The notes beneath the pieces are model-generated. The model was not told where the DNA came from. It searched no databases and worked only from the letters and a program-made list of their open reading frames with translations. A stretch of 36,603 nucleotides of DNA. Source: an uncultured Candidatus Saccharibacteria bacterium (GTDB taxonomy: Bacteria; Patescibacteriota; Minisyncoccia; Phycocordibacterales; UBA9973). The position numbers and the translations under genes are program-made. Shown piece by piece: positions 16,842 to 22,241 of this stretch. Location of the stretch: assembly GCA_964637995.1 (NCBI GenBank), contig CAZWXV010000001.1, positions 41,186 through 77,788 on the forward strand, in the 5' to 3' direction. Each line of letters opens with the position of its first letter. Position 1 is the first letter of the stretch.

Positions 16842-18940
<2,099 letters not shown>

Positions 18941-19006
18941 GAAATACATAGGTTTTGCTAGTGATTTTTAACTAAATTCGTGTTGTAAAATCACCCTAAA
19001 ATTAGT

Positions 19007-19044
19007 ATAGGGGTTGCGGCTACGAATGTTGCAGCAACCCCTAT
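19007..19044 (-). terminator. 11-bp hairpin downstream of the small ORF (possible terminator)
   Basis: ATAGGGGTTGC (19007-17) pairs with GCAACCCCTAT (19034-44) across a 16-nt loop. On the minus strand it is followed by ACUAAUUUUAGGGUGAUUUU. Confidence 0.4.
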
Positions 19045-19073
19045 GTCCACAGATCGCGTGCGGCCGCGGCCGG

Positions 19074-19286
19074 CTAGATACCGGCGGAGATACCATCTCT
19101 TTCGAGATGGGCTTCGTGGAGAAGAAGGTCCAGTTTTGCCTGAATTCGTCGCATCTGAAAATCGCGACTGGCGCGCTTGTTGAGAGAACCATGGGGCTTC
19201 TTCACGCTTTTTTCTGCTATGCGAAGAATCTCTACGTAATACCTCTCGATCTTTTCGCTCAGCGGATCGTTAAAATAAAGTTCCAT
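19074..19286 (-). CDS. Hypothetical small helical protein (70 aa)
   Basis: The ATG at 19286 is preceded by GGGGGAG and a 7-nt spacer, the clearest Shine-Dalgarno I found in this window. The product is MELYFNDPLSEKIERYYVEILRIAEKSV...LLLHEAHLERDGISAGI. I recognised no family. Confidence 0.45.
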   Translation of the reverse strand: MELYFNDPLSEKIERYYVEILRIAEKSVKKPHGSLNKRASRDFQMRRIQAKLDLLLHEAHLERDGISAGI

Positions 19287-19373
19287 TGAACTACTCCCCC
19301 AATGCCGATTTCGCCCAGCTTTGCGGTTCTGCAAAGAACACCATAGGGTTTTAGATTGACCCAAAAACGACCA

Positions 19374-19395
19374 AGCCCTCCGTGATTGGAGGGCT
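19374..19395 (-). terminator. Terminator-like hairpin: AGCCCUCC, AAUCAC, GGAGGGCU, then UUGGUCGUUUUU
   Basis: A perfect 8-bp stem with a 6-nt loop. The U-rich tract lies only on the minus-strand side. Confidence 0.45.
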
Positions 19396-19499
19396 CGTGT
19401 GGAAACCTGTCAAATACTTTTGCAAATACGCCAGTAAAAGCTAAGCACCGAAAGGTTTCCGCATGAACCCCCCAATTTGGCGTATTTCCATTTAGTTGT

Positions 19500-19528
19500 A
19501 AAAGAACAAAAAAGCCCCCGAGAGGGCT
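19500..19528 (-). terminator. Intrinsic terminator: AGCCCU, CUCG, GGGGCU, then UUUUUUGUUCUUUU
   Basis: The stem spans 19528-19513. It has 6 bp on the minus strand (including one G-U pair) but only 5 on the plus strand. A strong U-run lies on the minus strand. Confidence 0.55.
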
Positions 19529-19643
19529 GGTGTTTGAGTTGTAAATTTTGGTTTTAGTAGTTTTTACAGCGCAAATATCAGCCCTCTAGAAGAGAGTTGA
19601 TAATGACGAGTACCAAATTTGCCTGTAAATTTTTCACATTCGT

Positions 19644-19670
19644 ATTATAGCACATATGAAAAGGATGCAA
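19644..19670 (-). promoter_or_regulatory. Orphan promoter: TTGCAT, 15 nt, TGC-TATAAT, with no ORF behind it
   Basis: A consensus copy of the window's promoter motif is at 19652-19644, just downstream of the pheT stop. The only nearby ATG is immediately followed by TGA. Confidence 0.5.
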
Positions 19671-19690
19671 GGTGGGGGCTGTGGAAAACA

Positions 19691-21478
19691 TTATCTTACT
19701 TGCCATCCCTTTTCCGTAATTTTCTCCGTTATTTTGGTCAAGAGTTCATTTACCTCTCCGTCCGTAAGAGTCCTATCGTAGGACTGGAAAACTATCCGGA
19801 ACGCGTAAGAAACTTTGCCGTCTTTTTTGAACTCATCGAAAAGTTCGGGCCCCCGGACTACCATTTCCCCCGCATTATCCTTCATGACTTTGGCGACATC
19901 TTCTGTCTTAATCCCTTCAGGCACCCATACCGCCATATCGCGCGCAATAAACGGATACAGCGGCCACATTTTAAAAACGGACACCGGGCCTTGGGTTTTG
20001 GGTTCAAGCTTAATGTCAGCGGACATGTCTTTGCAAAATTCGTCCAGTGTCATTTCTTTTACTTCCTTTTTGTCTCCGTAGGCGACACGCATCTCTTCTA
20101 CGCTCTTTTTGAAGATCGTTCCAATTTCAAAAACTTTTACCGTGTCAGTGCCCAAAAGCGGAGCATTGGCTTGGTTTAATTTAATGCTTTCCCGTAGTCC
20201 GTCCACCAAATTGGTGCGCAAGAAGTTTTTGTCCGATGCGGATGCCAAAACTGCTACATCCCCGCTATTTTTAAAACTGGAAGTCATAACTTCGGAATAT
20301 CCTTCCCCTATCAATTTATTCCTAGCCCAAACAATTTTTGCATATGTATTGTTTTGTTTTGGAAGAAATTCAATTTTGGGTATTTTCGGCTTAACTTTGT
20401 CATATCCTAAAATTCTGCCTATTTCCTCGGCGGCATCTTCTTCTATATTTAAATCCAGCCGCATGGCAGGCACGGTAATGGTAAACCCACCGTTTTCTTC
20501 TTTATGCTCCATGTTATATCTTTTCAGGATGTCTTTTATTTCAGCCGGAGAAACGGGGAGCCCTAAAATTTTAGAAATTTTTTCCGTCCGGAAAGAAAGC
20601 TTTTGTACCTCTTGTTTTTTGGGGTAGACATCCACAATATCCTCAAAAATCGCCTCGGGACACATCTCGGCTATGAGCGCGGAAAGTTCCCGCATCCCAT
20701 AAGATGCCAGCTCGGGAGACAGGTCATTTTCGAAACGCTTTTTTGCATCGGTTTGAATATTGAGGGCCTGAGCCGTTTTACGGACACTGGTCGGATCAAA
20801 ATTCGCGCATTCAAGAATAATATCTGTCGTATTGTCAGAAAGTTCAGCGTATTTCCCACCTTTTATACCGGCTATATCCAGCGCGTTTCCATAGTCATCA
20901 GCGATAATCATCATTGACTCATCCATTATTTTTTCCCCACCGCCGAGCAAGGTTATCGTCTCTCCTTTTTTCGCATCCCGAACCTGGAGTTTTAAGTCTT
21001 TCACTTTACTTAAATCAAAAACATGGGCCGGTTGCCCACAATTAAACATCGTTAGATTTGTTGCATCTACGATATTGTTTATACTTCTCTGTCCTATTGA
21101 TTCCAAATGCTTCACCACCCAATCGGGGGACGGACCGATTTTGATATTTCTCGCTACACGTCCCATATACCTGCGGCAGTTCGGAGATTCAATCGTCTTT
21201 ATTAGTTTGGTCGGTTTTGATTCCGGAATTTTATATTTGGGCGTCGGGTCGTTAAATTTTATATTTAAGAGCGACGCCAGCTCGCGGGCGAGCCCCTGAT
21301 GGCTCAAAAGGTCATGCGCACGGTTTGGTAATATTTTAATATCAAAAACCGTATCGCCATCAGGTTTACTGCTCATTTCTTCAACTTCAAAAAGGTGGCG
21401 GGTAATAGTATCCGCCAGCTTCGTCACTTCGGGGGCATCTGGGATATACCATTTAAGCCAGTTGTAAGAGTAAAGCAT
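19691..21478 (-). CDS. pheT: Phenylalanyl-tRNA synthetase beta subunit, lacking the B2 (OB-fold tRNA-binding) domain
   Basis: The 595-aa protein has the B1 segment MLYSYNWLKWYIPD...FEVEEM joined directly to ILPNRAHDLLSHQGLAREL. The B3_4 editing block is present (RRYMGRVARNIKIGPSPDWV...GQPAHVFD). Confidence 0.93.
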   Translation of the reverse strand: MLYSYNWLKWYIPDAPEVTKLADTITRHLFEVEEMSSKPDGDTVFDIKILPNRAHDLLSHQGLARELASLLNIKFNDPTPKYKIPESKPTKLIKTIESPNCRRYMGRVARNIKIGPSPDWVVKHLESIGQRSINNIVDATNLTMFNCGQPAHVFDLSKVKDLKLQVRDAKKGETITLLGGGEKIMDESMMIIADDYGNALDIAGIKGGKYAELSDNTTDIILECANFDPTSVRKTAQALNIQTDAKKRFENDLSPELASYGMRELSALIAEMCPEAIFEDIVDVYPKKQEVQKLSFRTEKISKILGLPVSPAEIKDILKRYNMEHKEENGGFTITVPAMRLDLNIEEDAAEEIGRILGYDKVKPKIPKIEFLPKQNNTYAKIVWARNKLIGEGYSEVMTSSFKNSGDVAVLASASDKNFLRTNLVDGLRESIKLNQANAPLLGTDTVKVFEIGTIFKKSVEEMRVAYGDKKEVKEMTLDEFCKDMSADIKLEPKTQGPVSVFKMWPLYPFIARDMAVWVPEGIKTEDVAKVMKDNAGEMVVRGPELFDEFKKDGKVSYAFRIVFQSYDRTLTDGEVNELLTKITEKITEKGWQVR

Positions 21479-21479
21479 A

Positions 21480-22187
21480 CTATAATTGGTTTAACCTTAA
21501 ATCCCCGCTATAAATTAAGCGTACATCCGGGATGCCCCATTTAACCATGGCGATACGGTCAAAGCCGTGTCCAAAAAGGAGGCATTGGTATTTCTTGGGG
21601 TCCAGACCGATATTTTTCAAAACATTAGGGTGTGCCATTCCCGCTCCACCCATCTCCAGCCATTTTCCTTTAAATTTCGTAAAGGTTTCTACTGAAGGTT
21701 CTGTAAAAGGAAAGAAGCTGGGGCGAAACTCTAATTCTATATCATCCCCCAGCATTTTCTTATAGAAATTAGTGAGTACCCCTTTTAGGTTAGCTAGAGA
21801 AATATTTTCTCCTATCATTCCTCCGTCTATCTGATAAAACTGCATTTCGTGAGTAGAGTCCGTAGCTTCATTGCGGAAAACCTTGCCAATGGAAATAAAT
21901 GCGGCGGGTATGCGGCCCTCTTTGCCCGCCTGCTCCAGCGCGCGTGCGATGGTCGCGGTCGTATGCGTACGGAGCACTTTTTCCTTTTCATCTTTAATCA
22001 CAAAAGTGTCCTGCATGTCCCGCGCGGGATGGTCCCGGGGCACATTTAAAACGTCAAAGTTGTACCATTCGCTTTCAAGCTCGGGGCCGGTAGCGATTTC
22101 AAAGCCCATTTCGGCGAAAACAGTATACGCCTCCGCCGCCAGGAGCGAGAGCGGGTGGATACTGCCTTTTTGACCCTTATCTTCCAT
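21480..22187 (-). CDS. pheS: Phenylalanyl-tRNA synthetase alpha subunit, catalytic core only
   Basis: The ATG at 22187 gives MEDKGQKGSIHPLS. Motifs PRDHPARDMQDTF, RTHTTA, FRPSFFPFTEPS and GAGMAHPNVL are present. The N-terminal coiled-coil is absent. Confidence 0.93.
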   Translation of the reverse strand: MEDKGQKGSIHPLSLLAAEAYTVFAEMGFEIATGPELESEWYNFDVLNVPRDHPARDMQDTFVIKDEKEKVLRTHTTATIARALEQAGKEGRIPAAFISIGKVFRNEATDSTHEMQFYQIDGGMIGENISLANLKGVLTNFYKKMLGDDIELEFRPSFFPFTEPSVETFTKFKGKWLEMGGAGMAHPNVLKNIGLDPKKYQCLLFGHGFDRIAMVKWGIPDVRLIYSGDLRLNQL

Positions 22188-22194
22188 GTTTTTT

Positions 22195-22205
22195 ATTCTA
22201 CAGCA
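22195..22205 (-). promoter_or_regulatory. pheS promoter element TGCTG-TAGAAT, 7 nt upstream of the ATG
   Basis: The minus strand reads TGCTGTAGAAT-aaaaaac-ATG(22187). Confidence 0.4.
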
Positions 22206-22241
22206 AAAAACCAAAAGGGCAACGTTCCGTCTTCGGGAACG
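22205..22241 (-). terminator. Terminator after proA
   Basis: CGTTCC (22241-36) pairs with GGAACG (22228-23) across a 7-nt loop. UUGCCCUUUUGGUUUUUU follows. The hairpin starts 4 nt after the proA stop. Confidence 0.45.

Follow-up and report, generated by a model that had tools for sequence, protein, structure and literature searches.

The DNA analysed here, referred to as the window, is a stretch of 36,603 nucleotides (nt) from an uncultured Candidatus Saccharibacteria bacterium (contig CAZWXV010000001.1, positions 41,186 to 77,788), in which we studied the gap of about 400 nt that separates pheT from a small open reading frame (ORF) and gyrB. The closest relatives of the window pheT were all labelled Nomurabacteria/Paceibacterota. 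The genes bordering the gap are as follows.

22214-21480, minus strand: pheS
21478-19691, minus strand: pheT
19286-19074, minus strand: ORF of 70 amino acids (aa), with a Shine-Dalgarno (SD) sequence GGGGGAG at 19300-19294
18923-16842, minus strand: gyrB

The preliminary description regarded the gap as free of ORFs and as a candidate riboregulator or small RNA (sRNA). Part of this proposal stands, as genuine switches appear to be present, and twice (element 1 and element 2 below). The other part does not: a conserved leader ORF lies in the first half of the gap, so that the first switch is neither an ORF-free riboswitch nor an sRNA behind an orphan promoter. Five terminator-like sites were counted in 18800-19900 against 1.5 ± 1.3 in shuffles, the folding z-scores of the minus strand were -5.2 for 19600-19495 and -4.5 for 19500-19365, and both halves of the gap are conserved in other genomes. 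The best explanation, which we consider probable from the sequence, is that an autonomous cassette of ~650 nt sits as an insertion between pheT and the promoter of gyrB itself, with the gap serving as its regulatory head.

Searches with blastn and nhmmer in 80 pheT-anchored loci recovered an element of ~100 nt, matching 19599-19496 of the window, in ~25 loci, sometimes twice. The pheT-gyrB spacer of many relatives measures 54-103 nt up to residue 17 of gyrB, compared with 450-2600 nt in the loci bearing the element; an insertion thus accompanies the element. When one genome per species was scanned with a pattern, 70 further loci were added, and the pattern scan and nhmmer together amounted to 91 distinct copies, all of them in Nomurabacteria/Paceibacterota assemblies. 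Several contigs of one assembly often carry copies, up to at least four per genome. Judged from its sequence, the inserted unit is autonomous, consisting of a predicted promoter, a leader, one or more attenuators, a variable small ORF and then a terminator. The genes downstream of the copies are gyrB (27), AspRS-like genes (17), genes for phosphoribosyl pyrophosphate (PRPP) synthetase (5) and single cases of other housekeeping genes. Copies are co-oriented with the downstream gene at a ratio of 67:2, and with the upstream gene at 60:8, so the downstream bias is uninformative alone.

The preliminary description tied the switch to gyrB, which is probably not the regulated gene. Two features lie between the 70-aa ORF and gyrB.

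19044-19007, minus strand: closing hairpin AUAGGGGUUGCUGC...GCCGCAACCCCUAU, then ACUAAUUUU; likely end of the inserted transcription unit
18963-18932, minus strand: gyrB promoter, with CACTAGCAAA at 18963-18954 and TGCTATAAT at 18940-18932, followed after 8 nt by the ATG at 18923

The arrangement TGnTAnAAT-N5-9-ATG upstream of gyrB is conserved in loci with and without the cassette. The promoters of gyrB, aspS and prs are of the same type, and each is located directly behind a strong GC-rich terminator hairpin with a U-tract. Since gyrB has its own conserved promoter and the closing hairpin ends the unit before it, the switches most likely control the orphan 70-aa ORF, a putative gene and the likely regulated payload. 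Control of gyrB, aspS or prs by the attenuator was rejected, as each of them is served by a promoter of its own that follows a terminator, and T-box-like leaders precede some aspS genes.

The first half of the gap contains the following features of element 1.

19670-19644, minus strand: sigma-70-type promoter, -35 TTGCAT (19670-19665) and extended -10 TGCTATAAT (19652-19644), with 15 nt between the hexamers
19637-19578, minus strand: leader ORF of 19 codons, predicted to be leaderless, VKNLQANLVLVIINSLLEG followed by a stop, from GTG (19637-19635) to TGA (19580-19578)
19629-19618, minus strand: S1a, UUUACAGGCAAA, inside the leader ORF, pairs with S2
19602-19591, minus strand: S1b, UAUCAACUCUCU, inside the leader ORF, pairs with S2
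19588-19563, minus strand: S2, UAGAGGGCUGAUAUUUGCGCUGUAAA, partner of S1 or S3, nearly invariant in 88 copies
19545-19521, minus strand: S3, UUUACAACUCAAACACCAGCCCUCU, 3' arm of the antiterminator; its 19528-19523 is the 5' arm of terminator 1
19528-19513, minus strand: terminator 1 (S3:S4), AGCCCU-CUCG-GGGGCU, with the U-tract UUUUUUGUUCUUUU to 19500

The promoter was found where it had been described, and its -10 hexamer TATAAT (19649-19644) is preceded by the extended TG. The earlier statement that only ATG-TGA follows it could not be upheld, because an overlapping GTG opens the conserved 19-codon ORF. A promoter matrix from 77 copies of the family placed TTG at -34 to -32, TG at -15/-14 and TATAAT at -12 to -7 relative to the R (purine) of the RTG that starts the leader. 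From this geometry, the start codon would coincide with the predicted transcription start, and the mRNA would be leaderless.

In 82 of the 86 copies, the frame that starts at the conserved RTG stays open as far as S2, in comparison with three and eight copies for the other two frames. As the conserved 5' part shuts the other frames in all copies alike, the test was repeated on the non-conserved middle only. Stops occupied 1 of 824 codons there in the leader frame and 11 of 809 and 55 of 752 in the other frames, while 4.2% is expected from the composition (P ~1e-14). Leader lengths divided by three leave remainders 0, 1 and 2 in 59, 9 and 15 cases, respectively. The RTG begins with G in 60 of the 77 copies and with A in 17, followed by an invariant TG.

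The leader ORF of the window covers S1 (19629-19591) and ends with its TGA inside S2. In the family, S2 holds UAG, UGA and UAA, one in each frame, and consequently every leader ends inside S2. The predicted peptides terminate in ...RRLIFAL in 55 of 82 leaders and in ...LEG in 15 including the window, and the remainder stop at the UAG. Because the C-terminal peptide shifts with the frame while the bases stay fixed, S2 appears to be conserved as RNA and not as a peptide. The variable middle of the leaders is rich in Ser, Phe, Leu and Ile and nearly devoid of Asp and Glu; just upstream of S1b, it carries codon runs (FFF 18, II 16, FF 13, LLL 9 and VV 8) that differ between copies, even within one assembly (e.g., VVVV, III, LLL and LLL in one genome). 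The window leader has LVLVII in this part.

In the alignment of the family, the order from 5' to 3' is the promoter, a conserved RTGAATAAAAATATACAGCAAATA, a pyrimidine-rich variable stretch with CAGCCYUC at its end, S2 (consensus UAGAAGGCUGAUAUUUGCGCUGUAA), a variable loop, S3 (UUACAACCCAAACACCAGCCUUCUA), a second variable loop and S4 ((UAGAAG)GCUGGUGUUUU), behind which a U-rich tail follows in the 88-copy alignment. S2 and S4 are alike and both complementary to S3, and S1a (UACAGCAAAUA) and S1b (CAGCCYUC) resemble S3 and are the complement of S2. In the window, S2 and S3 form an inverted repeat of 25 nt (19587-19563 / 19545-19521, 84% complementary), of which the previously noted match of AGAGGGCUG (19587-19579) to CAGCCCUCU (19529-19521) is a part. 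The intrinsic terminator was present as described, with its U-tract to 19500, and the heptamer AGCCCUC/GAGGGCU indeed occurs four times. On sequence grounds, S1:S2, S2:S3 (the antiterminator) and S3:S4 (the terminator with its U-tract) are mutually exclusive hairpins.

Covariation was counted on a MAFFT alignment of the 88 copies against 500 shuffles, and compensatory changes in both helices bear out the antiterminator/terminator choice that had been suggested earlier. For the terminator S3:S4, taken in the longer form found in the family (ACACCAGCC / GGCUGGUGU), 87% of the cells were paired and 10 of the 11 pairs had compensatory changes; 49 cells were changed on both sides against 7.8 ± 2.5 in the shuffles, none of which reached this number. 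For the antiterminator S2:S3, 78.5% of the cells were paired, 11 pairs had changes on both sides, and 47 cells were changed on both sides against 21.6 ± 3.0 (again 0 of 500 shuffles as high). Sliding the partner columns abolished the covariation signal of both helices.

As S2 is almost invariant and the insert is poorly aligned, S1:S2 was followed in per-sequence folds, and most copies form it at minimum energy. When the 5' part was folded in this way, 23 of the 28 S2 bases paired upstream in the window copy, and 17.6 of 28 on average over 80 copies (mean z -2.2). In full-length folds, S2 pairs upstream in 60 and the terminator is present in 63 of the 80 copies. When everything 5' of S2 was masked, S2 shifted onto S3 in 49 of 80 folds, and when S1 and S2 were both masked, the terminator appeared in 76 of 80. 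In the window copy, the antiterminator form (-30.1) is nearly isoenergetic with the alternative state, in which S1:S2 (-20.2) and the terminator (-9.6) add up to about -29.8.

The same hairpin could in principle act on the DNA level or from the plus strand, i.e., as a miniature inverted-repeat transposable element (MITE) or repetitive extragenic palindromic (REP) sequence, a recombination site of a cassette system, or a plus-strand hairpin RNA. The region 19495-19600 indeed folds better on the plus strand (-36.5 kcal/mol) than on the minus strand (-26.9), and the unit is multi-copy, often tandem, interrupts a pheT-gyrB junction that is tight in many relatives, and often carries payload DNA that is GC-richer than its flanks. 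Nevertheless, we regard this explanation as very improbable. The better fold of the plus strand stems from four conserved positions at which A-C or C-A mismatches of the minus strand turn into G-U pairs. At these positions S1:S2 has A-U and S3:S4 has G-C, so that the cross-pairing S2:S3 would be weaker by design; the second partners of the two segments, S1 for S2 and S4 for S3, account for the conserved mismatches of S2:S3. The conserved promoter, RTG start codon, open frame and U-tracts all belong to the minus strand. At several other columns of the antiterminator and terminator, G-U pairs of the minus strand (e.g., columns 22-71, G-U in 13 copies) would be A-C on the plus strand, and S4 covaries with S3 yet lies outside the palindrome. 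No unit-bounding terminal inverted repeats, target duplications, transposase or integrase were seen, albeit no systematic search for them was made, and the GTTRRRY/RYYYAAC cores of attC sites were absent from the hairpin arms by eye, unit boundaries and recombinases not having been searched systematically. Thus, the sequence backs the minus-strand transcription argued for in the preliminary description by its promoter, U-tracts, leader ORF and G-U pairs, and we rejected the plus-strand hairpin as the functional form.

We consider that the first switch is probably a trp-type ribosome-mediated transcription attenuator with a leaderless start. This reading builds on the promoter geometry, the open leader frame, the three alternative helices with their covariation and the autonomy of the unit, as brought out by the sequence and its comparison among copies; translation of the leader and the stalling model are what we infer beyond them. 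Transcription would be started by the sigma-70-type promoter at or beside the GTG at 19637, so that the transcript opens with the leader ORF. If no ribosome is on the leader, S1:S2 would form, the S3:S4 terminator would form in turn, and RNA polymerase would stop near 19500, leaving a transcript of ~135 nt. A ribosome reaching the stop codon in S2 would cover S2, and the terminator would form again. By contrast with these two cases, a ribosome stalled in the variable middle, rich in hydrophobic codons (FFF, LLL, II and VV in other copies), would mask S1 and free S2, which could then pair with S3 before S4 is made, and RNA polymerase would read through. The read-through RNA would subsequently meet element 2, where the closing helix A:A' and hairpin P2, a possible sensor fold, would be the alternative to a long antiterminator hairpin in which the 5' arm of terminator 2 is sequestered. 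The SD-led 70-aa ORF would be reached only by RNA that has got past both switches. The most likely candidates for the signal are the supply of charged tRNA for hydrophobic amino acids or the general translation status. Sensing of a specific amino acid matched to the downstream gene was rejected, as leaders linked to aspS have Phe runs and no Asp codons.

Several observations weigh against the attenuator reading. The three tiny SOLiD metatranscriptomes of the source study (~2.5 Mb each) gave zero coverage here, and only the DNA runs hold the locus. No consensus emerged from RNAalifold for the MAFFT-aligned 5' leader, as the alignment is disrupted by the variable insert, and per-sequence folding took its place; S1:S2 is accordingly predicted from such folds and from conserved complementarity, not from covariation. 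The terminator was still detected in 68 of 80 folds with S1 masked; as it is often more stable even then, read-through would have to be under kinetic control. Across distant genomes, S2 and S3 are nearly invariant to a degree that pairing does not demand, which hints at an extra partner (a protein, a tRNA or a trans target) outside the model. The leaderless GUG start is deduced from promoter geometry. The codon runs of the leaders have no match to the downstream gene, the F, L, I and V runs vary by copy, and part of the stretch that carries them is also constrained by the pairing of S1b with S2. Finally, the 70-aa ORF is an orphan, which found only itself among 5.8 billion proteins.

The ~135-nt terminated transcript could itself be the main product, a trans-acting, multi-copy sRNA or dual-function RNA for which cis control of the payload would be secondary. 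There is precedent for attenuator RNAs and leader peptides that act in trans (PMC7968998 and PMC7298713), and a comparable case is rnTrpL with its peptide peTrpL in Sinorhizobium. The unit is equipped with a promoter and with a terminator that looks efficient, several near-identical copies occur per genome, sequence is conserved beyond structural need, and the payloads are hypervariable or doubtful as genes. We nevertheless judge this explanation unlikely, as (i) compensatory changes in both S2:S3 and S3:S4 indicate that the read-through state itself is under selection, and (ii) the C-terminus of the peptide varies with the frame (RRLIFAL or LEG before the stop), which makes a conserved peptide function unlikely. 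Complementarity to a target was not found, no search for it having been made. The sRNA explanation is compatible with the attenuator reading.

In line with the preliminary description, which could not match the gap to a riboswitch class, an Rfam covariance search assigned no family to it. At the gathering score, the whole window contained no Rfam family besides tRNA. With Rfam 15, the gap and two homologous copies returned only hairpin noise at E up to 10, and 17 loci gave no family at the gathering score. Phe_leader (RF01859) reached 21.4 bits in locus L097 and 16.7 bits on the plus strand of the window against a gathering score of 55, and Leu_leader (RF00512) 14.1 bits in locus L155 against 50, both being below threshold. 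The T-box model had no match at E up to 10 in the gap or the homologous copies; a T-box-like GUAGGGUGGCACCGCG lies elsewhere in these genomes, directly upstream of aspS.

These searches also bear on the alternative that element 1 is a riboswitch binding a metabolite, an ion or a protein, in which the S2:S3 hairpin is the aptamer, a ligand favours it over the terminator, and the ORF is incidental. Such an aptamer would be in keeping with S2 and S3 being almost invariant even at bases unpaired in the hairpin, with the S2:S3 helix that competes with the terminator and covaries, and with the lack of a specific regulatory codon in the leaders. It would give no role to the RTG-led open frame, the bias to multiples of three or the stops in S2; moreover, pairing of S1:S2 and S3:S4 explains the conserved mismatches, the apical loop is variable in sequence and length, and Rfam has no match. 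We therefore hold a riboswitch at element 1 to be highly unlikely.

Ribosome-mediated attenuators are known from amino-acid operons of Proteobacteria (trpL, pheL/pheM, hisL, leuL, thrL and ilvL). As in these trp-type attenuators, a short leader ORF lies over segment 1, its stop would let a terminating ribosome cover segment 2, the 1:2, 2:3 and 3:4 hairpins are exclusive with 3:4 being an intrinsic terminator with a U-tract, and the leader carries runs of identical hydrophobic codons (FFF, LLL, II and VV). Unlike them, element 1 is predicted to be leaderless instead of SD-led, its codon runs match no downstream biosynthetic or synthetase gene, and its payloads are hypervariable small ORFs. Further differences are the multi-copy nature with S2 and S3 nearly invariant across genomes, the S2 stops in three frames, the Patescibacteria hosts, the tandem coupling to an RNA-only switch and the lack of membership in an Rfam leader family.

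Attenuators with leaderless small ORFs containing consecutive Cys codons have been described for cysteine-related operons of mycobacteria (bioRxiv 10.1101/834739), and leaderless mRNAs starting with 5'-RUG have been treated in general (PMC4633059). Element 1 is similar to the mycobacterial small ORFs in having a short regulatory AUG/GUG ORF at the 5' end of a transcript that also contains the downstream genes, and the purine-UG start rule of leaderless mRNAs fits the first base of its leaders, which is G or A only (77 of 77 copies here). It differs from them in its covarying terminator and antiterminator, in having no Cys runs as a rule and in its unrelated sequence. Tandem riboswitch arrangements are also known (PMC12452182). 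As with tandem riboswitches or attenuators, two serial terminator/antiterminator switches that must both be passed lie in one 5' leader. In contrast, the first switch here is predicted to depend on the ribosome, and the second is without a known ligand or Rfam family. No description of cis-regulatory RNA or attenuation in Patescibacteria was found in the literature searched.

The second half of the gap corresponds to element 2, which comprises the following features.

19490-19362, minus strand: element 2, predicted RNA-only switch
19487-19478 / 19433-19424, minus strand: helix A:A', 98% of cells paired, one A-U to G-C compensation
19469-19454, minus strand: hairpin P2, GGUUY/RAACC, C-G in 3 sequences and U-A in 7
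19476-19453 / 19408-19385, minus strand: antiterminator of element 2, 22 pairs, 88% paired, with an invariant U-G
19397-19372, minus strand: terminator 2, then GUCGUUUUUG to 19362; its 5' arm is the 3' end of the antiterminator

Both the second terminator-like hairpin and the two crossing inverted repeats of the preliminary description are present, and the latter correspond to mutually exclusive helices conserved in 11 sequences. In full, the repeats are I3 (19490-19478 / 19433-19421, 13 nt, 92%) and I1 (19476-19450 / 19411-19385, 27 nt, 81%), and a further repeat, I4, is the hairpin of terminator 2. As A:A' crosses the antiterminator, the two exclude each other. The U-G pairs fit the minus strand only. 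The layout is that of an OFF switch, in which the sensor fold (A:A' and P2) would free terminator 2. In P2 and terminator 2, 97% of the cells are paired. Covariation of the kind proposed earlier was found in one pair each of A:A' and P2, in addition to that of S2:S3 and S3:S4; for element 2 this support is thin, the 11 sequences being too alike.

Homologues of element 2 were found in loci L136, L124, L095 and L155 and in six further metagenome contigs, giving 11 distinct sequences with the window. A strong copy of element 1 (>80 bits) lies directly upstream in 7 of the 11 including the window, two have weak upstream matches (14 and 19 bits), and none was seen in L155 and L162. In these two loci, element 2 is located behind another terminator and before a gene for a free-standing ThrRS editing domain, which is followed in L155 by prs and aspS. 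A possible second leader peptide within element 2 (ATG at 19490, 16 codons) was rejected, as the ATG is not conserved in the homologues. The family model of element 1 has a weak match (E 0.02) at 19400-19357, which suggests that terminator 2 may descend from an S3:S4 pair. Element 2 alone may be read as riboswitch-like, and it is a candidate orphan switch.

With regard to the genes around element 2 in L155 (1100-4320; also L162), we noticed that the 140-aa product is a homologue of the archaeal ThrRS editing domain (PF08915, E 3.7e-18), and that its gene heads a prs-aspS operon in L155. In the same locus, a diverged leader ORF (MNTQNKFNKFWYYTKCAAFALLC followed by a stop) with its own terminator replaces the canonical element 1.

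Upstream of the promoter of the window copy lies one further conserved site.

19688-19680, minus strand: DnaA-box-like nonamer TTTTCCACA, 3 nt past the pheT stop and 9 nt upstream of the -35 hexamer

It is the only match to TTWTCCACA in the 36.6-kb window. In the family, 34 of 76 copies have this motif in the same orientation and at a fixed distance upstream of the -35 hexamer (-52 to -49 relative to the start of the leader), compared with an expectation of 0.7 from shuffles. TTWTCCACA fits the DnaA-box consensus of Escherichia coli, and binding of DnaA at the TTTTCCACA site is putative, being taken from that consensus. Across the 1.18 Mb of loci, TTWTCCACA occurs 86 times in distinct places against ~18 expected. 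It is also found upstream of other promoter types (loci L088, L091, L093, L094, L096, L102, L111, L113, L133, L134 and L147), one of which has a palindromic ATACTAGCATACTAGTAT operator.

The payloads are hypervariable across copies, and their ORFs had no match in Pfam, PHROG or PADLOC. One payload family with the pattern ..EWF..LTVP..LPCG[CH]..GWVH.. recurs in ~11 copies (loci L018, L088, L101, L118, L120, L122, L129, L130, L133, L138 and L150); when its 114-aa member in L130 was searched against the large protein set, a single relative (78% identity) came up besides the protein itself. The payload DNA (+10 to +310 after the attenuator, e.g., in L130, L021 and L104) has a higher GC content than the flanking genes in 34 of 79 copies, reaching 0.67 versus 0.45. 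This bias suggests that the payload genes are of foreign origin or unusual in composition.

It is attractive to speculate, albeit doubtful at this point, that the units form a portable expression platform of Nomurabacteria. A conserved head (the DnaA-box-like site, the promoter, the leaderless leader and one or two attenuators) would be combined with hypervariable, often GC-richer small genes, which would be swapped by recombination between the near-invariant heads and the closing terminators, and element 2 would act as an orphan riboswitch gating the cassettes on a cellular signal.

The family would represent a concrete regulatory device in the ultrasmall, mostly uncultured Patescibacteria that can be checked by sequence alone, and would add two new RNA motifs to family libraries, of which element 2 may be an orphan switch. 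The family further draws attention to likely regulated small genes that evolve fast and are inserted beside housekeeping genes. A compact and portable ON/OFF leader native to Patescibacteria could serve tools for inducible expression, which this field is reported to lack (PMC11665869).

We also noticed several features of the neighbouring genes. The window encodes a short form of phenylalanyl-tRNA synthetase (19691-22214, minus strand), with pheS of 244 aa and pheT of 595 aa, the latter matching the Pfam domains B3_4, B5, tRNA_synthFbeta and FDX-ACB. On the plus strand, a TTG-started ORF of 186 aa (19619-20179) runs antisense to the 3' end of pheT and enters the gap; we took it as a chance frame. 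The gyrB promoters share a conserved CACTAGCAAA around -35. In the housekeeping genes gyrB, aspS and prs, TGnTAnAAT is positioned 5-9 nt before the ATG, resulting in near-leaderless mRNAs. Leaderless or near-leaderless expression may thus be common in these genomes, and the leader of element 1 together with these promoters suggests that leaderless translation is routine in Patescibacteria. Directly upstream of aspS in L103, L093 and L138, a T-box-like GTAGGGTGGCACCGCG is followed by a terminator. The Rfam T-box model detected nothing at the gathering score in L093 and L138, and these aspS leaders may be divergent T-boxes of Patescibacteria.

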